DNA of 64,000 nt. Origin: Bacteroidales bacterium. Lineage in GTDB: Bacteria; Bacteroidota; Bacteroidia; Bacteroidales; UBA932. The position numbers and the translations under genes are program-made. Below are positions 6,095-62,453 of this stretch, piece by piece (the first letter of the stretch is position 1; the number at the start of each line of letters is the position of its first letter). The stretch is from NCBI GenBank assembly GCA_041654355.1, contig JBAZDQ010000007.1, positions 3,258-67,257 on the forward strand, written 5' to 3'. The notes below the pieces were generated by a model. The model saw only the letters and a program-made list of their open reading frames with translations. It did not search any database and was not told where the DNA came from.

Positions 6095-6160
6095 GGTTTT
6101 ACCTATATATTATTAGGTGAATATTGTAATTTTATACAATTTATTACCTGATACCTATCT

Positions 6161-7516
6161 ATGACTAAGCAATCGAAAATGACATTCTGGAATATCTGGA
6201 ACATGACTTTCGGGTTCCTGGGTATTCAATTCGGACTTGCCTTACAGAATGCAAATGTTAGCCGTATCCTGCAGTCTTTTGGAGCGGACGTAGACCATCT
6301 CTCCCTGTTTTGGATTGCGGCTCCGCTGACAGGCATGATCGTCCAACCGATCATAGGACATTACAGCGACCAGACATGGACACGCCTGGGACGCAGAAGG
6401 CCTTTCTTTTTGGCAGGAGCCATTATGGCATCCATAGCCCTCGTTCTGATGCCCAATGCCCCTATGCTGGCGCCTTACATAGCCCCTATGTTCATCGGGG
6501 CAGGTATTTTGATGATCATGGATGCCTCTATCAATGTGGCCATGGAACCTTTCAGGGCCCTGGTTGCCGATCTGCTTCCTTCCGATCAGCGTACACTGGG
6601 CTTTTCCGTTCAGACATCGCTTATAGGAGTCGGGGCCGTTTTGGGAGCTGTCCTTCCGTACCTTTTGACCAACTGGTTTGGTATATCCAATGTACCTGAA
6701 CCGGAAAGCGGGGATCTGGTGGCCCACAACGTATCATACGCCTTTTATATAGGAGCTGCGGTTCTTATGGGCAGTGTGTTGTGGACCGTAATAAAAACAA
6801 AAGAACATCCGCCGGAAGACGGGAATCATCCTCAAAAAATGCCCTTCTGGCAGATAGGTAAAGATTTTCTGAAAATTCCGAAAACAATGAAACAGCTGGG
6901 AGTGGTTCAGTTTTTTTCCTGGTTTGCCTTGTTTTCCATGTGGGTCTATATGGTCCCTGCAGTGGCCGAGCATGTCTACGGTTCTACCGACAATGCCTCA
7001 CAGGCTTATGCAGATGCAGGCGACTGGGTAGGTATCCTGCAGGGGGTATACAACGGAGTAGCCGCTGTTTTTGCATTTTTACTCCCGTGGATAGCCAAAA
7101 AAATCGGACGCAAAGGCACCCATGCTTTGTGCCTTTTCCTGGGAGCAGCAGGATTTCTTTCTTTTTACATCATCAAGGATCCCGCGTTGCTCATACTACC
7201 CATGATAGGGGTCGGTATTGCATGGGCCGGTATCCTGGCCATGCCTTACTCGATCCTGGCCGGAGCCTTGCCTGCCCATAAAATGGGCGTTTACATGGGA
7301 ATATTTAACTTCTTTATAACCATCCCCCAGATATGCAACGGGCTTATAGGAGGGATTATGGTAAAACACATTTACGGGGGACACACCATTTTTGCCCTGG
7401 TGTTCTCCGGAATATGTCTGCTGATAGCTGCCGTGAGCGTTTTCTTTGTAGACGACAAAGACGATCCCGTACAGCTCTCTTTCAGATATAAACAACGAAT
7501 AAGATTATCAACCTAA
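6161..7516 (+). CDS. MFS sugar (maltose/maltodextrin-type, GPH/SLC45-like) inner-membrane transporter
   Basis: About 12 predicted TM segments, an RLGRRRPF loop motif after TM2, and a position at the head of the starch PUL. Confidence 0.8.
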   Translation: MTKQSKMTFWNIWNMTFGFLGIQFGLALQNANVSRILQSFGADVDHLSLFWIAAPLTGMIVQPIIGHYSDQTWTRLGRRRPFFLAGAIMASIALVLMPNAPMLAPYIAPMFIGAGILMIMDASINVAMEPFRALVADLLPSDQRTLGFSVQTSLIGVGAVLGAVLPYLLTNWFGISNVPEPESGDLVAHNVSYAFYIGAAVLMGSVLWTVIKTKEHPPEDGNHPQKMPFWQIGKDFLKIPKTMKQLGVVQFFSWFALFSMWVYMVPAVAEHVYGSTDNASQAYADAGDWVGILQGVYNGVAAVFAFLLPWIAKKIGRKGTHALCLFLGAAGFLSFYIIKDPALLILPMIGVGIAWAGILAMPYSILAGALPAHKMGVYMGIFNFFITIPQICNGLIGGIMVKHIYGGHTIFALVFSGICLLIAAVSVFFVDDKDDPVQLSFRYKQRIRLST

Positions 7517-53326: not shown

Positions 53327-56281
53327 ATGCAATTTTACAGCCCGGATTACACGCAGTTGATGGAAAAGCGTATACGGCGTATCCTTATGATATGCAGCAG
53401 TTACGACGCTTACATCCTGGAAGAGGACGGACAAATAGACGTTCAGATCCAAAAAGAATACAGTGACCTGAATATCAGCAACCCGCCTTCTTTTTCCTGG
53501 GTAACCACATCTGAAGAAGCCCACACGTTGCTTCATAACGGGGAAGATTTTGACCTGATCATCTGCATGTTCAACATAGGGGACATGGATGTATTCAGTT
53601 TTGCACGCAATTTGCGAGAAGAAGGCTCAGAAACTCCTATAGTACTGTTGTCCAACTATTCCAGGGAATTCAAAAACCGCATAGAACAGGAGGACTGCTC
53701 GGCCATCAATTACATATTCAGCTGGCACGGCAACGCAGACCTCATCCTTGCCATTGTCAAACTTTTGGAAGACACCATGAATGCCGAGGAAGACATCCTC
53801 CATTCGGGAGTACAGTGCATCTTGCTGGTGGAAGACTCGGTAAGGTATTATTCCACTTACCTGCCTGCCATTTACAAACTTGTTTTGAAACAAAGTGCCG
53901 AGTTTTTGAAGGAAACGCTCAATGACCAGCAGCAAAAGACACGGAAAAGAGCCCGCCCCAAGATATTTCTGGCCACTAATTACGAAGATGCCGTGGCTCA
54001 TTACGAGAAATTTAAGAACAACCTGCTGGGTGTCATCTCCGATGTGGGATTTATCCTGCATAAGAACGATCCTTCCGATACCGAAAAACTGGATGCCGGT
54101 ATAGATCTGTGCCGCATGATCCGCCAGGACGATCCCCAGATGCCTATCTTGCTGCAATCTTCCCAGCAAAGCATGAGAAAGATAGCCCGCGAACTGGGTG
54201 TCGGTTTTTTGATGAAAGATTCCAAGGCCTTGTTGATGGAATTGAGTGAGTACATTGGTGAAGAATTTGCGTTTGGCGATTTTGTAGTTCGTAACCTGGT
54301 TACCGGGGAAGAAATAGCACGTACCAAAAACCTGCGCGAATTACAATCGCTCATCAAGCAGATCCCGGACAAGGAACTGCTCTACCACACTTCCCGGAAC
54401 AGGCTTTCCAAGTGGCTGTTTGCCAGGGGGCTGTTCAATTTGGCCAGACCCATCAGGGATGCCATGCCATCTGATTTTGAAAATGTTACCGAATTACGGG
54501 AATTCATAATTGCCCTTATTAAGGAATACCGTTTTGTTAACGGGCAGGGAGTAATAGCCCGTTTTGACAAGGACACGTACAGCCGTTATATCACATTTGC
54601 CCGTATAGGGGAAGGTTCCCTGGGCGGTAAAGCACGCGGCCTGGCCTTTCTGAACAGGCTTTTGGTAAAATACAACCTCAGCCACAAATACAAAGGAGTC
54701 TTTGTGACCATACCCCAGACCATTGTCATAGCTGCCGATTATTTTGACACGTTTATGGTAGATAACGGGTTGCGTTATGTAGTTAATACAGAAGGCATCA
54801 CAGATGAAGAGATACTTTCTGAATTTGTCAGTTCCCGCCTGCCTATAGAAATGCAGAACCAACTGAGGATCTTTTTGGACAAGGTGAACAAACCCCTGGC
54901 TGTCAGATCCAGCTCTAAACTGGAAGACTCACTTTTTCAGCCTTTTGCCGGTATATATTCCACTTATATGTTGCCTTTGACGGAAAATAAGGACCAAATG
55001 TTACGACTTTTGAGCAAAGCAATCAAGAGCGTCTATGCTTCAGTCTTTTTCGCCGCCAGTCGCAATTACATTCAGACAACGGCAAATCTGCTGAGCGAGG
55101 AAAAAATGGCCCTGGTTATACAAACCCTTTGCGGGACGGAAGAAAACGGGTATTTCTTTCCTACTTTGTCGGGACTGGCCCGTTCCGTAAATTATTACCC
55201 CATAGGCCACGAAAAACCCGATGACGGCATAGTCAGTATGGCCTACGGATTGGGAAAACTGGTTGTGGAAGGAGGTAGGGCATTGCGCTTTTCGCCGCGT
55301 TATCCCCGCAACGTAATGCAGACGATGAACCCCAAAAGCGCCCTCAACGAAACGCAAAACGTAATGTACGCGCTGAACCTGCGCCCCGAGGAATTCAAGA
55401 CTTCCATTGACGATGGGGTGAACATCCAAAAATTTACAATTGCCCAATCATCGGCTTTTCGCAACATCAGCCACGTGGCCTCTACCTGGGACATGGACAA
55501 TGACATACTGGTGCCCGGAACTCATCTGAAAGGTCGCAGGGTGATTACATTTGATAATATTCTTCAGAATGATACCATACCACTGGCAACTATTTTAGCT
55601 GATTTACTGGAGATCTGTCGCAACGAAATGCGTTGTCACGTGGAAATTGAATTTGCCGTAAACATGGATGTGCCTGCCGAACACGATGCCATTTTTAATT
55701 TATTACAAGTGCGTCCCATTACCGATTATGGAGAAAACACAGAATTCAACTGGGAAGAAGCAGACATACAAAAAGCCCTTATATATTCTGAAAATGTGCT
55801 GGGTCCAGGTGATATTGAGGGAGTTACGGATGTTGTTTACGTACGCACCCATGTGTTTGACAGCCGCAATACAATAGGGTATGCACAGGAACTGGAAGAA
55901 CTTAATCGCATAATGAAAGAAGAACACCGAACCTACGTTCTTATAGGTCCGGGAAGGTGGGGGTCATCGGATCCCTGGCTGGGGATCCCCATAAACTGGA
56001 ATAATATTTCCGAAGCCCGGGTGATCGTAGAATGCAGTCTGGAAAACTTCCAGGTAGACCCCAGCGAAGGAACCCACTTTTTCCACAACCTCACATCCCT
56101 GGGAGTTGGATATATGAATGTCAAACCTTTCCGCAGTGAAGGTGTTTTCAATGAAGCATTTCTCAATAAAATGGACGCCTGGTATGAAAGCGACGCCATT
56201 AGGGCAGTCAGGTTCCCGAAGGAACTTACCATCAATGCCGACGGCCGGTTACGCAAAGGAATCGTAATTCCCGCAAAATAA
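53327..56281 (+). CDS. REC-like + REC + PEP/pyruvate-binding (PPDK_N, ATP-grasp) domain protein
   Basis: N-terminal receiver-like fold (RILMICSSYDAYILEEDG), a second receiver (CILLVEDS...GVISDVGF...), and a PPDK_N signature (GEGSLGGKARGLAFLN...AVRSSSKLEDS). No phosphohistidine swivel or TIM-barrel motifs were seen. Confidence 0.75.
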   Translation: MQFYSPDYTQLMEKRIRRILMICSSYDAYILEEDGQIDVQIQKEYSDLNISNPPSFSWVTTSEEAHTLLHNGEDFDLIICMFNIGDMDVFSFARNLREEGSETPIVLLSNYSREFKNRIEQEDCSAINYIFSWHGNADLILAIVKLLEDTMNAEEDILHSGVQCILLVEDSVRYYSTYLPAIYKLVLKQSAEFLKETLNDQQQKTRKRARPKIFLATNYEDAVAHYEKFKNNLLGVISDVGFILHKNDPSDTEKLDAGIDLCRMIRQDDPQMPILLQSSQQSMRKIARELGVGFLMKDSKALLMELSEYIGEEFAFGDFVVRNLVTGEEIARTKNLRELQSLIKQIPDKELLYHTSRNRLSKWLFARGLFNLARPIRDAMPSDFENVTELREFIIALIKEYRFVNGQGVIARFDKDTYSRYITFARIGEGSLGGKARGLAFLNRLLVKYNLSHKYKGVFVTIPQTIVIAADYFDTFMVDNGLRYVVNTEGITDEEILSEFVSSRLPIEMQNQLRIFLDKVNKPLAVRSSSKLEDSLFQPFAGIYSTYMLPLTENKDQMLRLLSKAIKSVYASVFFAASRNYIQTTANLLSEEKMALVIQTLCGTEENGYFFPTLSGLARSVNYYPIGHEKPDDGIVSMAYGLGKLVVEGGRALRFSPRYPRNVMQTMNPKSALNETQNVMYALNLRPEEFKTSIDDGVNIQKFTIAQSSAFRNISHVASTWDMDNDILVPGTHLKGRRVITFDNILQNDTIPLATILADLLEICRNEMRCHVEIEFAVNMDVPAEHDAIFNLLQVRPITDYGENTEFNWEEADIQKALIYSENVLGPGDIEGVTDVVYVRTHVFDSRNTIGYAQELEELNRIMKEEHRTYVLIGPGRWGSSDPWLGIPINWNNISEARVIVECSLENFQVDPSEGTHFFHNLTSLGVGYMNVKPFRSEGVFNEAFLNKMDAWYESDAIRAVRFPKELTINADGRLRKGIVIPAK

Positions 56282-56372
56282 ATTTAAACCCTGACCACAG
56301 TCAAAATTTTTTATTCCTTTTTTTCCCACCATCCCCCCAAAAAAAATCCCCCTGCTGGGAGTGTTTCAGGAC

Positions 56373-56915
56373 TGACCAGGGGCAAAAACCCTAGTAATCT
56401 GCCCCTGGTGGGTATGTTTCAAGGCTGACCAGGGGCATAAAACCCCTAAAAGTGCCCCTGGTCATGATACCCAAATAACGTGAATTTTCCCAAGTCTCAC
56501 ATCCAGTGTAATTTACAAATTTGCACATAAATCAGTCATAAGCACCAGGGGCAAAAACCCCAGTAAACTGCCCCTGGTGGGTATGTTACGGGGCTGACCA
56601 GGGGCAAAAACCCCCTAAAAGTGCCCCTGGTCATGATACCCAAATAACGTGAATTTTCCCAAGTCTCACATCCAGTGTAATTTACAAATTTGCACATAAA
56701 TCAGTCATAAGCACCAGGGGCAAAAACCCCAGTAAACTGCCCCTGGTGGGTATGTTTCAAGGCTGACCAGGGGCAAAACCCCGGTAATCTGCCCCTGGTC
56801 ATGATTCTCAATTAACGTGGATTTTGCTAAGTGCCACATCCACAGCAACTTACAAGTTTGCCCATAAATCAGTCATAAGCACTAGGGGCAAAAACCCCAG
56901 TAAACTGCCCCTGGT
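56373..56915 (+). repeat. Tandem hairpin array, family A (3.3 copies of a 169-bp unit; 7 stem-loops)
   Basis: Stems ACCAGGGGCA / TGCCCCTGGT with 14-16-nt A/C-rich loops lie at 56375-56409, 56426-56464, 56544-56578, 56595-56633, 56713-56747, 56764-56801 and 56881-56915. Paired hairpins are 53 bp apart and pairs are separated by a 79-nt spacer. Confidence 0.9.
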
Positions 56916-56931
56916 GGGTATGTTTCAAGGC

Positions 56932-57246
56932 TGACCAGGTACGAAAACAGGGCAAAAGTGCGCCTGGTGGGCACGATTTAGGGTTGACCAGGTACGAAAA
57001 CAGGGTAAAAGTGTGCCTGGTGGGCACGATTTAGGGTTGACCAGGTACGAAAACAGGGTAAAAGTGTGCCTGGTCATTATTGTCAACAATTGTTAATTTC
57101 ATCAAACACCACATATATAGTGACTTACGATATCATCCGTTTGGTCAGATGGAAGCACCAGGTACGAAAACAGGGTAAAAGTGTGCCTGGTGGGCACGAT
57201 TTAGGGTTGACCAGGTACGAAAACCCAAAAAAAACGTACCTGGTCA
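56932..57246 (+). repeat. Tandem hairpin array, family B (5 stem-loops, same 53-bp register)
   Basis: Stems ACCAGGTAC(G) / (C)GTGCCTGGT or CGTACCTGGT lie at 56934-56968, 56987-57021, 57038-57076, 57157-57191 and 57208-57246. The linker GGGCACGATTTAGGGT recurs, with an 80-nt spacer between 57077 and 57156. Confidence 0.9.
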
Positions 57247-57338
57247 TAGTTCCCAAATATTGGAAAATTTATCAAACACCTAAAAGATAGTTTCTTATGG
57301 AAATCCACATGGGATTAGCCGGTATAAGGTGTAAAACC

Positions 57339-57375
57339 CCGGAAGAATATACCGGAAGAATATACCGGAAGAATA
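57339..57375. repeat. 13-bp tandem repeat CCGGAAGAATATA x ~2.8
   Basis: Copies at 57339-57351, 57352-57364 and 57365-57375 (truncated into an A-run). It directly abuts the 3' end of rnpB. Confidence 0.8.
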
Positions 57376-57381
57376 AAAAAA

Positions 57382-57709
57382 CGGAGGGCCTGTAAGCCGG
57401 GTTCTGTCGAACTCCCATCATTTGTCTAAGCAGCCTACCCCCCGGCATAGGACGGGCAGTCCTAATATTGCCGGTATACTTGGCCTTGCAGGAGACCGGT
57501 GCCTGCGTCAACGGCCGTCGCCGACCGTTACGGTGGGCTCTTACCCCGCCTTTTCACCCTTACCCGGGTCCGAAGACCCAGGCGGTTATTTTCTGTCAAG
57601 CGATCCCTGACCTTACGACCAGCTGTGATTTCCACAGGATCCCGCCCTTTCCTGCCCGGACTTTCCTCCCTTTTCCAAATGGAAAAGAGCGATGGGACAG
57701 CCCTCCGCG
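57382..57709 (-). ncRNA. rnpB: RNase P RNA (bacterial type A)
   Basis: The reverse complement contains the universal GGAGGAAAGTCCGGGC (plus strand 57654-57669), GGTAAGGGTGAAA, and ACAGAACCCGGCTTACAGGCCCTCCG at the 3' end. P1 pairs CGGAGGGC with GCCCTCCG, followed by a T7 run. End positions are +/- a few nt. Confidence 0.9.
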
Positions 57710-59382: not shown

Positions 59383-60137
59383 TAAAGTACCTGTACATAA
59401 AGATCCTTTTGTTGTCCACAATTTTATTGGGAACGGCTTCATCCGGAATACCGCGTTACGGTTACCGTATAGAGGAAGTGTTGCCACATAATATCAGTTC
59501 TTATACACAGGGATTCTTTTACCATAACGGGTTTTTCTACGAAAGTACAGGACAGTACGGCCGGTCCATGATTGCCCAGGTAGAAGTCAACACCGGTCGT
59601 GTTTTGAAATCGCATGCCCTGGACCGCAACTATTTTGGGGAAGGGGCCTGTCTGCTGGACGGACTTATTTACCAGCTTACCTGGACCGAACGGACCTGTT
59701 TCATTTACGATGCCCAAACCTTCAATTTGTTGGGCACACGCCGCTATAATCGCCAGGGATGGGGGCTGACTACGGACGGAACGGATTTGATCATGAGCGA
59801 CGGAAGTTCCACACTCTATTACCTGGATCCGAATTCTCTGATAGATAAACGTACCGTAGAAGTGACCCTGGAAGGCAGAGAAGTTGAAAATCTGAATGAA
59901 TTAGAGTATATTGACGGAGAAATCTGGGCAAACATCTACCTGAGTGATGATATTGTGCGGATAAACCCGGAAACAGGAAAAGTGACAGGTGTTATAAACC
60001 TCAAAGGCATATTACCTGCCTCGCTGCGCAAACCGTCCACCGACGTATTGAACGGAATTGCTTACGATGCCCAAACAGAAAGTATATGGATAACGGGGAA
60101 ATACTGGCCCCGGGTATATAAAATTTCATTGAAATAA
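59379..60137 (+). CDS. Glutaminyl-peptide cyclotransferase (beta-propeller, plant/bacterial type)
   Basis: The pattern YTQGFFYHNGFFYESTGQYGRS...LTWTERTCFIYD...GWGLTTDG...ELEYIDGEIWANI matches the Glu_cyclase_2 family. Confidence 0.8.
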   Translation: MIKYLYIKILLLSTILLGTASSGIPRYGYRIEEVLPHNISSYTQGFFYHNGFFYESTGQYGRSMIAQVEVNTGRVLKSHALDRNYFGEGACLLDGLIYQLTWTERTCFIYDAQTFNLLGTRRYNRQGWGLTTDGTDLIMSDGSSTLYYLDPNSLIDKRTVEVTLEGREVENLNELEYIDGEIWANIYLSDDIVRINPETGKVTGVINLKGILPASLRKPSTDVLNGIAYDAQTESIWITGKYWPRVYKISLK

Positions 60138-60141
60138 CAAA

Positions 60142-60214
60142 GTTTCAGGGGTGCCCCACAACGGGCTGAGAAAATACCCTTTGAACCTGATCCGGGTAAT
60201 ACCGGCGGAGGAAA
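60142..60214 (+). promoter_or_regulatory. TPP (THI-box) riboswitch
   Basis: CAGGGGTGCCCCACAACGGGCTGAGAAAATACCCTTTGAACCTGATCCGGGTAATACCGGCGGAGGAA matches the conserved GGGGTGC...CTGAGA...ACCCTTTGAACCTGATC.GG.TAATRCC.GCG.AGGAA core. Boundaries are approximate. Confidence 0.85.
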
Positions 60215-60218
60215 AACT

Positions 60219-62453
60219 ATGAAAAAAATCATTATTGCGGGTTTGCTGCTGGCCCCTGTCTTTACAACAGCACAAGAAGTAAGAAATCTGGATTCTATTG
60301 TCATTGTGGCTACCCAGGCTGCCAAAGATTCACCTGTAGCACACCGGGAAGTTACGAAAGAAGATCTGGTGCGTACCGCGCCTGCACAAAACCTTCCCTT
60401 TGCTTTGGCCATGACGCCGGGTGCCGTAGTGGTGGGTGAAAACGGGACGGGAAGCGGCTACGCTTATTTACGAATTCGCGGATCCGAAGGCTCGCGTATC
60501 CAGGTAAATTTGAACGGGATCACACTGAACAATTCCGAATCCCAGGAAGTTTTCTGGGTCAATCTGCCTTCCTTGAGCGGATTTCTGGAAAACGTACAAG
60601 TGCAACGCGGGATAGGGACTTCCGTAAACGGTAGCGGGGCTTTTGGAGCCACCGTAAATATGCGCACCTTGTATTCACGTCCAAATCCCTATGCCGGTGC
60701 GGAACTGGCATACGGTTCGTTCAATACTTGGAATATGTCTATTGGTGCAGGGACCGGGATAGGGACCAAAGAATCTTTTCTGCCTAACGGGATGGGTCTG
60801 GACATACGCTATTCGCATAATTTGACGGACGGCTACATCCGTAACGGGAAAGGTAACCTGCAGTCACTCTTTACAAGGTTGTCATTCATTCGTCCTGAGT
60901 ATTCCATAAAAGCCTATTACATTTACGGTGATCAGCACACCGGTATCACCTGGGAAGGCATATCACGTGAAATGCTGGAAACCGACAGGACCTACAACCC
61001 GGCCGGCGAATATACCGACCAACAGGGAAACACAAAATATTATCCTAACGAAACCGACAATTACACGGAACACCACGTTCAGTTGAATTATTCCCACAAC
61101 ATCACGCAGCGCCTTTCCGTCAGCAATACGTTTCATATGACAAAAGGAGACGGGTATTACGAAAATTACAAAGAAAAAAGTGCAGGGGATTACATCGTGC
61201 GCCGTTCCATGGACAACATTTATGCAGCTCTAAGTTCGGTAGCCCGCTTGGAAATTCCGGAAGTTCCACGCAATGTATCGAACCGAAAATCCGAGATCCT
61301 CCTGGGTCTTAATTATGCATACTACAGCGGGTATCACTACGGATTGATGACTTATAAGCTGGAACAGCCGGATTTTGCCGATGCTCAGGAATATTACAGG
61401 AATCTGGGCAATAAAAATGATTTCAGTACATTCTTGAAGGGGACTTTTGATGTACCGCTGGGTCCGAATCCCGATAATGTGCTAAAATTTTTCGGGGATA
61501 TGCAATACCGGTACGTAAACATGATGATGGAAGGGCCGGATAACGACGGGGCACTCCTGGATCACAAATCATCTTATCATTTTTTCAATCCCAAAGCAGG
61601 AGTAACTGCCGTGATACTAAAAGACCACCAGTTGTATGTGTCTGTTTATACCGGAAGCCGGGAACCTTCCAGAAGCGATATAAAGGAATCCATAAAAGCC
61701 GGGAAAACAACAGACGTTAAGTCCGAGCGCCTCTATGATATGGAAGGGGGTTACCGCCTCATAAGACAATCTTTCATGCTGGGTGTGAATTTCTATGCTA
61801 TGGAATATCGCAACCAACTGGTCCCGACAGGTAAGAAAAGCGATACCGGTTACGAGATCAAGGAAAATGTTCCCGTATCTTACCGCCGGGGGGTGGAACT
61901 GGAAGCCGGCTGGAACCCTTTCCCGCAATTGCGTATGGAAGGGAATGCCTGTCTTAGCCGTAACAAGATCAGGGACCTGACCATCTATTTGGACACGTAC
62001 GACAACCCGGACAACTGGAATCCGGTTACGCCCCAACTGACCGAACATTACGAATTGACAGATCTGGTATATTCACCTTCCGTTACGGCAGCAGCGTTGG
62101 TTGCCGTTAAACCGTTTGTCGCCGGACATTCCCTGTTCCAGCATCTGGAAGCGGCCTTTACGGCTCGTTTTGTGGGTAAGCAATATTTTGACAATACATC
62201 CAATCCCGACCGCATATTGCCGGCTTACCAACACCTGGGGTTAACCATATCTCAACCCTTTACAACAAGAAAAGCAGGTACGTTTACCGTCAGTCTTTTT
62301 GCTGACAACCTATTGAACCAAAAATATTGTGCCAGTGCCTGGGCTTACAGGGCTGCCTTTCGCGAGACCGGAACTATTGAAGTGATGGAAGGCTTCTATC
62401 CCCAGGCCGGGATCAATGCCATGATCAAAATTGCCTGGGAATGGGGGAACTAA
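60219..62453 (+). CDS. TonB-dependent outer-membrane receptor, riboswitch-controlled (putative thiamine/precursor uptake)
   Basis: Signal peptide, plug domain (LDSIVIVATQA, RIRGSEGSRIQVNLNG), a beta-barrel, and a C-terminal aromatic-rich end. A TPP riboswitch lies directly upstream. Confidence 0.85.
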   Translation: MKKIIIAGLLLAPVFTTAQEVRNLDSIVIVATQAAKDSPVAHREVTKEDLVRTAPAQNLPFALAMTPGAVVVGENGTGSGYAYLRIRGSEGSRIQVNLNGITLNNSESQEVFWVNLPSLSGFLENVQVQRGIGTSVNGSGAFGATVNMRTLYSRPNPYAGAELAYGSFNTWNMSIGAGTGIGTKESFLPNGMGLDIRYSHNLTDGYIRNGKGNLQSLFTRLSFIRPEYSIKAYYIYGDQHTGITWEGISREMLETDRTYNPAGEYTDQQGNTKYYPNETDNYTEHHVQLNYSHNITQRLSVSNTFHMTKGDGYYENYKEKSAGDYIVRRSMDNIYAALSSVARLEIPEVPRNVSNRKSEILLGLNYAYYSGYHYGLMTYKLEQPDFADAQEYYRNLGNKNDFSTFLKGTFDVPLGPNPDNVLKFFGDMQYRYVNMMMEGPDNDGALLDHKSSYHFFNPKAGVTAVILKDHQLYVSVYTGSREPSRSDIKESIKAGKTTDVKSERLYDMEGGYRLIRQSFMLGVNFYAMEYRNQLVPTGKKSDTGYEIKENVPVSYRRGVELEAGWNPFPQLRMEGNACLSRNKIRDLTIYLDTYDNPDNWNPVTPQLTEHYELTDLVYSPSVTAAALVAVKPFVAGHSLFQHLEAAFTARFVGKQYFDNTSNPDRILPAYQHLGLTISQPFTTRKAGTFTVSLFADNLLNQKYCASAWAYRAAFRETGTIEVMEGFYPQAGINAMIKIAWEWGN

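Follow-up and report, generated by a model that had tools for sequence, protein, structure and literature searches.

Repetitive extragenic palindromic (REP) sequences and bacterial interspersed mosaic elements (BIMEs) are maintained and seeded by RAYT (TnpA-REP), a Y1 (HUH) transposase whose gene belongs to the same genome and is typically flanked by REPs. REP palindromes carry a GTAG (or CGTC) tetranucleotide at their foot (PMC3733652, PMC3333891), BIME-2 elements are tandem and vary in copy number with locus and strain, and the linkers of E. coli BIME-1 often bear an IHF binding site (PMC3333891). [quoted passage not shown] Here we analyze an array of twelve hairpins found in a 64,000-nt stretch of DNA from a Bacteroidales bacterium (contig JBAZDQ010000007.1, positions 3,258 to 67,257; hereafter the window, with positions counted from its first letter), where it separates a gene for a PPDK_N-domain protein from rnpB, the gene of RNase P RNA. 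The repeat that composes it is a clade-restricted modular hairpin minisatellite which behaves like REP/BIME and BOX yet belongs to neither; no description of it appears to exist, and its sequence occurs in no paper of the literature library that we searched. We consider it probable that the region is a local expansion of this clade-restricted, dispersed, modular intergenic DNA repeat.

Direct reading, Tandem Repeats Finder, a repeat finder and an explicit pairing table agree on the twelve hairpins, which a first-pass annotation of the sequence had proposed. Their positions are given from the pairing table and, like those of all other features of the array, on the + strand. Eleven of them are 35 nt long and the sixth is 34 nt. 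Hairpins 1 to 7 (type 1) have the stem ACCAGGGGCA/TGCCCCTGGT, with ACTAGG as a variant in the seventh, and in the other five (type 2) ACCAGGTACG is paired with GTGCCTGGT, GCGCCTGGT or GTACCTGGT. Starts are 53 bp apart inside blocks and 115-117 bp apart between blocks, which bears out the 53-bp register first reported, and the start positions also give the proposed grouping in blocks of 2, 2, 2, 4 and 2. The final hairpin of each block has, as described, a 12-bp stem (TGACCAGG...CCTGGTCA) by virtue of a TG...CA extension.

The first block consists of hairpin 1 (56375-56409), an 18-nt linker (GGGTATGTTTCAAGGCTG, 56410-56427; family consensus GGGYRYGTTTYAGGSCTG) and hairpin 2 (56428-56462), whose 12-bp stem includes the flanking TG/CA, and is followed by an 81-nt spacer that fits the family consensus (56463-56543). 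The second comprises hairpin 3 (56544-56578), the linker GGGTATGTTACGGGGCTG (56579-56596) and hairpin 4 (56597-56631, 12-bp stem), and its spacer (56632-56712) matches the first exactly, as had been noticed. Hairpin 5 (56713-56747), identical to hairpin 3, a linker (56748-56765) and the 34-nt hairpin 6 (56766-56799, 12-bp stem) precede a diverged copy of the spacer (56800-56880). The four-hairpin block runs from hairpin 7 (56881-56915) through a linker (56916-56933), hairpin 8 (56934-56968), which has an imperfect stem, the linker GGGCACGATTTAGGGTTG (56969-56986), hairpin 9 (56987-57021) and a further linker (57022-57039) to hairpin 10 (57040-57074, 12-bp stem), after which comes the most diverged spacer, of 82 nt (57075-57156). 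Hairpin 11 (57157-57191), a linker (57192-57209) and hairpin 12 (57210-57244), with a perfect 12-bp stem, form the last block. The linkers exist as described, but the length of 16 nt given for them holds only when 12-bp stems are counted, and 18 nt otherwise separate the 35-nt hairpins; the block spacers, put at ~79-80 nt, measure 81-82 nt. The inner refolding of GGGG-CAAAAA-CCCC that had been attributed to every stem applies to type-1 hairpins and not to type 2, from which the motif is absent by inspection.

Degenerate ends had also been recognized, but the repeat reaches further than the limits set for it, to ~56322-56374 on one side and 57245-57355 on the other. On the left, a T-rich junction with a remnant of CTGACCAC (56282-56321), missing from the sites of relatives that lack the array (loci L005, L006 and L007), leads to a degenerate edge unit made of a decayed hairpin and the linker GGAGTGTTTCAGGACTG (56322-56374; repeat family D1 copy, 65% identity, with an nhmmer unit match from 56358). 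On the right there is a terminal spacer-like, degenerate module (57245-57318; repeat family D2 copy 57157-57297, 83% identity) and a degenerate 13th hairpin, CCGGTATA...TATACCGG (57319-57355; repeat family D4 copy 57327-57342, 88% identity), the interior of which, AGGTGTAAAACCCCGG, resembles a type-1 5' arm plus loop. At the right junction Tandem Repeats Finder detects a 13-bp tandem repeat, CCGGAAGAATATA (2.8 copies, 57339-57375), abutting the 3' end of rnpB; it overlaps the degenerate hairpin and has the look of an array edge that decayed and later underwent duplication. The whole gap of 56282-57376 is repeat-derived, with decayed units on either side of the array. As the first-pass annotation had stated, the gap holds no credible open reading frame (ORF): the longest frames, of 74-79 aa, cross repeats or enter rnpB, and the 74-aa frame, the single one tested, has no Pfam match.

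Within the window the array contains a near-perfect 169-bp duplication. Tandem Repeats Finder reports a period of 169 (3.3 copies, 92% matches) beside a period of 53. The sequence ACCAGGNNC is found 33 times in the 64 kb, against 7.25 expected, and 23 of the 33 occurrences fall inside the array; a profile of the 53-nt unit found no further copy elsewhere in the window.

Outside the window the repeat is widespread within a narrow range of hosts. A scan of 185,579 species genomes with the type-1 hairpin as query found arrays with identical 53/116-bp spacing at at least 20 loci of at least 8 Bacteroidales-type metagenome-assembled genomes (MAGs), and another 61 loci came from a metagenome scan with the linker junction as anchor, for a total of 109 arrays, 512 units and 80 loci. 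Whole-locus single-linkage dereplication merged nearly everything, and we used a flank-based definition of sites instead, by which the 109 arrays come down to ~24 distinct intergenic sites. The unit is a dispersed, multi-copy family, and this, like the absence of the locus from close relatives described below, touches a refuting condition of the first-pass annotation. Arrays hold 1-12 units, and one site other than that between PPDK_N and rnpB spans 1-11 between samples. The names of the host MAGs suggest anaerobic-digester origins. Viral contigs, phage genomes and plasmids gave no match to the family, and we rejected a phage or plasmid origin on these grounds. Short-read contigs frequently start or stop inside arrays (position 1 of L049, the end of L004 and many contigs among L111-L171), so the array sizes measured in MAGs are lower bounds.

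Three modules make up the family. Module H is the 35-nt palindrome ACCAGGGGCA-AAAACCCnnnAAAAsT-GCCCCTGGT, in which the loop is conserved across genomes; module L, the 18-nt linker with consensus GGGYRYGTTTYAGGSCTG, is likewise conserved across genomes; and module S, the 81-nt spacer, has the consensus CATaaT.TTCAAa.AA..AtTTtgtCAAa.gCCtCAT..AGca.tTTAcAAAAT...cagAaGC, contains two near-palindromic boxes rich in A and T and is conserved across genomes as well. Modules invariably follow one another head-to-tail, at a step of 53 bp for H+L and of 116 bp for H+S. An extra tail module is shared after the last hairpin in two MAGs only, at L015 (~1400-1640, ~2440-2660) and L026 (~2200-2420, ~6100-6330); this fourth type is a ~80-nt imperfect palindrome, GGCGGCCACTGCCA...GGGAAGC...GCTTCCC...TGGCAGC, followed by a conserved stretch. 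Solitary 36-nt palindromes with the arms ACCAGGGGCA/TGCCCCTGGT and 12-bp stems were also seen, among loci L019-L110, in Nocardiopsis (>30 loci), a Poribacteria MAG (L066, L086 and L106), Streptomyces and a Gemmatimonadetes MAG. They make up the rest of the matches of the genome scan and seem to represent distinct REP-like families, of unrelated phyla, with the arm sequence in common.

The site in the window lies between convergent transcription units. On one side is the gene for a 984-aa protein with a response-regulator receiver and a PPDK_N domain (53327-56281, + strand; Pfam PPDK_N E=1e-36, Response_reg E=5e-9), whose orthologues place the window in the uncultured Bacteroidales; on the other is rnpB, an RNase P RNA of bacterial class A (57377-57708, - strand; Rfam RF00010, 229 bits, E=3.8e-73), the 3' end of which Rfam sets at 57377 and not at 57382 as previously given. 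Comparison of this site among relatives speaks against a conserved locus: the ~1.09-kb array is missing beside orthologues of the PPDK_N protein that are 86%, 76% and 69% identical, where rnpB directly abuts or overlaps the PPDK_N stop codon (in the 86% relative the contig stops inside rnpB, 169 bp beyond the stop codon). From the PPDK_N gene to pyrG the window measures 1482 bp; in L006 and L007 the distance to the next gene is ~397 bp, filled by rnpB alone, and in L005 rnpB likewise overlaps the stop codon. In all three the PPDK_N frame ends at or inside the convergent rnpB 3' end, with no spacer (L005 7964-8151, L006 7976-8319, L007 7964-8301). The window array is a ~1.09-kb lineage-specific insertion between the two genes.

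Arrays at this site are confined to the closest relatives and are composed differently in each. Metagenome contigs of the same species carry an array shorter by one or two 169-bp blocks; in a sister species (flanking gene 87.5% identical) the array begins 14 nt past the stop codon and its unit types are ordered differently; and a third relative has nine units, nearly all of them imperfect type 2. The number of units is 4, 9 or 12 among samples. The site is fixed and the array in it turns over rapidly. In the third relative (L117, 95-190 and 900-1100) the hairpin array is also flanked by satellites, ccaaccctaacccaaactcagcccaacccaactcaa in two copies and the aatcgaaaatcgg type, and the intergenic site gathers repeats of several kinds.

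Comparison of the units indicates how such arrays may change. Mean unit identity is 0.847 within an array and 0.885 between adjacent units, versus 0.826-0.835 elsewhere, and identical pairs make up 7.5-12% within arrays versus 1-2% elsewhere; the within-array excess was reached in 1 of 1000 permutations. These figures, together with the identical neighbouring spacers and the identical hairpins 3 and 5 of the window, show that arrays amplify where they sit. At most arrays the edges are decayed units. BLAST of flanks against flanks together with mapping of the edges revealed no shared termini, terminal inverted repeats, inverted ends or fixed end position, and comparison of empty with filled sites revealed no target-site duplication; we rejected defined ends of this kind, the edges decaying into degenerate units. 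A homogeneous interior with decayed edges is the pattern expected of unequal exchange or slippage, and through unequal recombination or replication slippage the arrays would gain and lose length by 53 or 169 bp at a time. Arrays also coincide with differences in gene content. One MAG has a single array where another has an array, a 3.8-kb segment of five genes and a second array, and a toxin-antitoxin module beside an array is present in one MAG and missing in another. Such indels would result from recombination between directly repeated arrays or from insertion into one of them, and arrays may act as portable homology blocks through which the intervening genes are more readily lost or gained.

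Among the described systems, REP/BIME is similar in many respects. The palindromic units, of 35 nt, fall within the 20-40 nt of REPs, are extragenic and occur in multiple copies at many loci; palindromic units and conserved linkers form a mosaic; the tandem number differs by locus and strain, as in BIME-2, with copies at the same locus alike (some of this variation may be assembly collapse); and arrays are scarcer between divergent promoters. Unlike REPs, however, the consensus unit and linker contain no GTAG or CGTC on either strand, the flanks reading ..CTG/ACCAGG, CCTGGT/GGG or CAT. Every unit of every array has the same orientation, head-to-tail, without the REP/iREP pairs, head-to-head or tail-to-tail, of BIMEs, and all arrays of a contig are co-oriented; the 81-nt spacer is a third module without counterpart in REP/BIME; and the host is not proteobacterial but belongs to the Bacteroidales, with no RAYT found in the 8-14-kb pieces in which host genomes were examined. 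The earlier statement that the array is not REP/BIME therefore holds for membership (no tag, no inverted pairs) but not for behaviour, which is REP/BIME-like.

BOX resembles the repeat in its modular build. Both are composites of intergenic modules (here H, L and S), one of them in a variable tandem number, and both should fold, by prediction, when transcribed; in both, variation between strains is greater for longer arrays, and the mobilising enzyme is uncertain. The hairpin arrays, in contrast, have no distinct boxA- or boxC-like terminal modules that pair with each other or carry inverted-repeat ends, no leader or tail common to all sites and no target-site duplication, and the repeated module is itself a strong 10-12-bp palindrome. 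BrickBuilt, with ~19 copies per genome, is also a strictly intergenic Bacteroidales element of limited host range with a variable internal tandem minisatellite, but its repeats are 23 nt long without spacers, and it has leader and tail subunits and small inverted-repeat ends where the hairpin arrays end in decayed units; it has experimentally shown promoter activity, whereas the spacers of the hairpin arrays have no conserved promoter motif. The absence of terminal inverted repeats or a target-site duplication bounding a unit of defined length sets the repeat apart from MITEs in general. Integron attC sites, such as the Vibrio VCRs, resemble it as co-oriented imperfect palindromes among small accessory and toxin-antitoxin genes with a possible single-strand hairpin form, but the consensus of unit, linker and spacer has no R''/R' core (RYYYAAC/GTTRRRY), arrays are multi-unit where an integron has a single site for each cassette, the genes between them point both ways, unlike the mostly co-oriented promoterless cassettes of integrons, and the ORFs run against Pfam include no integrase. 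The first-pass annotation was right to exclude attC, the array having no GTTRRRY core and no integrase nearby, and equally CRISPR, since the 18-nt and 81-nt intervals are themselves conserved repeats and not unique spacers of about 26-40 nt, and no Cas domain was found in the flanking ORFs run against Pfam.

We favour local expansion of a dispersed modular DNA repeat, and several observations weigh against it. Units of different species are almost as alike as units of one genome, and the intergenic region of a five-unit array is 96% identical between two MAGs (L014 3797-4437 and L040 962-1601) whose flanking genes are 83-91% identical, which could reflect recent exchange or constraint on the whole intergenic region. 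These two facts imply that something holds the consensus constant, and both hint at a functional constraint beyond a purely selfish or neutral repeat. Besides, no mobilising or maintaining enzyme was found in the host pieces, where the Y1 transposases were probed with a single sequence; no target-site duplication, terminal inverted repeat or fixed end defines an insertion chemistry; the ~24 sites are far below the hundreds typical of REPs; and some of the differences in copy number may be short-read assembly collapse.

Could the array owe its existence to the RNA that is read from it? In a cis-acting role, stem-loops in the 3' untranslated region (UTR) would block 3'-5' exonucleases or attenuate convergent read-through, as in REP/BIME. 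The predicted folding energy of two-hairpin blocks lies between -42 and -46 kcal/mol for the + strand and between -32 and -46 for the - strand (z -2.8 to -6.7), the palindromic arms give stems in either direction of transcription, arrays are more common between convergent (16) than between divergent genes (7), and the window array itself lies between convergent units. Between tandem genes, 15 arrays are sense and 17 antisense, and array orientation relative to the neighbouring genes is random. Module S is not structured as RNA (z -1.3 and +0.5). No U-tract follows any stem, which discards canonical intrinsic terminators. In the nearest relatives that lack the array the two genes stand back to back with no spacer; for such a role a hairpin or two would be enough, and twelve call for another explanation; and a need for stems alone leaves unexplained the conserved asymmetric loop, the linker, the spacer and the co-orientation. 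The absence of a conserved promoter, the random orientation and the hypervariable copy number also weaken the dedicated 3' UTR or insulator role suggested in the first-pass annotation. We hold the cis-acting explanation to be possible but doubtful; such an effect could be real and secondary, and not the origin of the repeat. Under the favoured reading, read-through transcripts would form stable hairpins in either orientation through the 10-12-bp G+C-rich stems, probably as a side effect, as with REPs.

In contigs with several arrays these are all co-oriented (19/19, or 14/14 independent comparisons after dereplication), and the genes between them point both ways; array fission could be an alternative source of this co-orientation. 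Constant arms, loop and lengths together with the shared polarity suggest a sequence-specific, direction-sensitive process at the DNA level. Among the roles that had been put forward for the array, the one in best agreement with the data is a hairpin repeat at the DNA level that an enzyme with its gene elsewhere would recognise, although none was found in the 8-14-kb pieces of host genome. A factor specific for the sequence and sensitive to direction, likewise encoded elsewhere, may maintain the family and seed new sites, be it an enzyme acting on hairpins or single-stranded DNA (ssDNA) or an architectural protein. A stronger version, in which an undiscovered DNA system of the Bacteroidales clade, sensitive to direction, has the arrays as its substrate or leaves them as its footprint, and in which the arrays would mark and mobilise the boundaries of accessory or defence blocks, seems to us unlikely, yet it is compatible with the 14/14 co-orientation, the constancy across species, the 10.6-bp phasing described below and the array-bounded indels. 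Such a system might take one of two possible forms, a RAYT-like hairpin or ssDNA enzyme that uses a different signal and seeds and homogenises head-to-tail arrays, or a protein that assembles on helically phased, curved arrays of hairpin sites.

Improbable, too, is an architectural role in double-stranded DNA, with phased 35-bp palindromic protein sites on curved DNA and a direction-dependent ligand (nucleoid-associated, gyrase-like or a polar barrier). Among 192 short steps, 184 measure 53 bp, and among 105 long ones, 89 measure 116 bp, a regularity that counts for the favoured reading too. Expressed in helical turns, 53, 116 and 169 bp are 5.0, 11.0 and 16.1, tightly conserved lengths near whole turns. 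Within the unit the three A/T tracts keep a phase of 10.6 bp (p ~0.014 versus random tract placement, in a post hoc test, which counts against this role; a first control by mononucleotide shuffle was too weak, as it destroys the tracts, and was replaced). The loop shows the same conservation as the arms, which a duplex binding site would lead one to expect, and the two AT-rich near-palindromic boxes of the spacer, the co-orientation of arrays and the parallel of BIME-1 linkers with an IHF site (PMC3333891) also suit this role. Against it, no candidate protein is known, the arrays are dispensable at orthologous sites and variable in length, and proxies for replication show no clear direction: GC skew is positive at 10 of 19 genome loci and 11 of 46 redundant metagenome loci, and the share of coding strand is 57%, values that come from 8-14-kb pieces of few regions.

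Functional noncoding RNA (ncRNA) genes, either a multi-hairpin protein sponge or tandem small RNA (sRNA) genes with a spacer promoter for each block, are very unlikely. The A-rich loop is conserved and asymmetric over 57 distinct hairpins from the genome-collection loci, the predicted folds are stable, the spacer boxes are conserved, and the non-Watson-Crick pairs of the type-2 hairpins of the window are G·U on the + strand. This hint of a strand does not extend to the family, for which G·U counts in those 57 hairpins are 25 and 23 on the two strands, and strand assignment by G·U was abandoned. Structure-preserving covariation, which the first-pass annotation had named as a check, is minimal beyond palindromy. 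Of the cells in the table of stem pairs, 90.4% pair, versus 33-46% when the partners are slid, but 7 of the 12 stem pairs are free of double-sided changes, those of the other five (39 cells) arise from the type-2 variant and from position-dependent flanking pairs, and the imperfect type-2 stem is passed on with its mismatches as they stand. A DNA palindrome would be expected to show this pattern just as much. Rfam has no match at the gathering threshold, as anticipated, and up to E 10 the best sub-threshold matches (26.5 bits versus a threshold of 78) are to unrelated families. The Bacteroidetes -7 box TAnnTTTG is present in 1 of 87 distinct spacers on the A-rich strand and 8 of 87 on the T-rich strand, and the full bipartite TTTG...TAnnTTTG in 0 of 87, whereas the window's own rnpB carries a perfect box, TAACTTTG; with neither TAnnTTTG nor TTTG conserved, spacer promoters were rejected, a sigma-70 scan being uninformative for Bacteroidetes. 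The loop consensus AAAACCCnnnAAAAs contains no GGA, and a CsrB/RsmZ-type sponge, which exposes multiple GGA motifs in its hairpin loops and has a CsrA/RsmA partner, was discarded for this reason. We also discarded a ToxI-like type III toxin-antitoxin array, in which repeats of about 34-40 nt stand in tandem immediately upstream of a toxin gene, there being no conserved adjacent ORF and the neighbours in the window being PPDK_N and rnpB. Absence from the orthologous locus in relatives at 86-69% protein identity and hypervariable copy number also count against RNA genes, and a single orientation over tens of kilobases would be unexpected of independent ones. The sponge-sRNA and tandem-sRNA roles first considered are weakened for want of a conserved promoter and by the random orientation relative to genes and the variable copy number.

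As for the genes around the arrays, BLAST clustering and reading of the flanking ORFs found no protein that recurs beside arrays except through synteny. Two batches of ten flanking ORFs examined with Pfam contain accessory and defence-like genes and no integrase, transposase or Cas domain, and tblastn with a single IS200 TnpA, a weak probe, found nothing in the window or in 110 loci. One flanking ORF, on which Pfam was not run, resembles an IS110 fragment by eye. Many sites cluster in two array-rich regions, and the one densest in arrays among those annotated, WOYW01000004.1, is accessory or defence-like and includes, with neighbouring loci, RelE-like/SocA and Phd modules, MazG-like, Schlafen-type helicase, UvrD-like, GNAT, Fic and ECF sigma genes and the likely IS110 fragment; the site of the window, unlike these, is between housekeeping genes. 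An integron-like system, in which co-oriented hairpin arrays would be folded ssDNA recombination sites that shuffle accessory cassettes, could account for the co-oriented clusters in these two regions, for arrays flanking toxin-antitoxin modules and GNAT, Fic and MazG-like genes and for a five-gene segment and a toxin-antitoxin module that come and go exactly at arrays, but it is most improbable, since no tyrosine recombinase was found among the fetched loci (with Pfam on a subset of flanking ORFs, the others BLAST-clustered and read by eye), the genes between arrays point both ways in multi-gene groups with their own regulators, the arrays are multi-unit without a GTTRRRY core and not single attC-like sites, the window's site is between housekeeping genes, and no dedicated enzyme is needed for the indels, for which homologous recombination between direct repeats is explanation enough.

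Apart from the array, the window has a thiamine pyrophosphate (TPP) riboswitch (60137-60230) directly upstream of a gene for a TonB-dependent receptor with a Plug domain (60219-62453). In a relative (L007, 9140-12028) a TonB-dependent receptor is followed by a gene with an NMN_transporter domain (PnuC-like), and this order of riboswitch, receptor and PnuC-like gene suggests a riboswitch-controlled thiamine uptake operon.

What looks like an exotic structured RNA beside rnpB is a repeat family, and the site should not be treated as a conserved ncRNA locus. The family extends modular repeats of the REP/BIME and BOX style to uncultured Bacteroidales, with a distinct design of head-to-tail palindromes, three modules, lengths near whole helical turns and one polarity per contig. 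Its arrays fragment short-read assemblies of the host clade, they bound differences in gene content between related genomes, and their length, which varies like that of variable-number tandem repeat markers, could be of use in strain typing. Should they be maintained by a dedicated enzyme or binding protein, the arrays would be a new example of small repeats shaping bacterial chromosomes.

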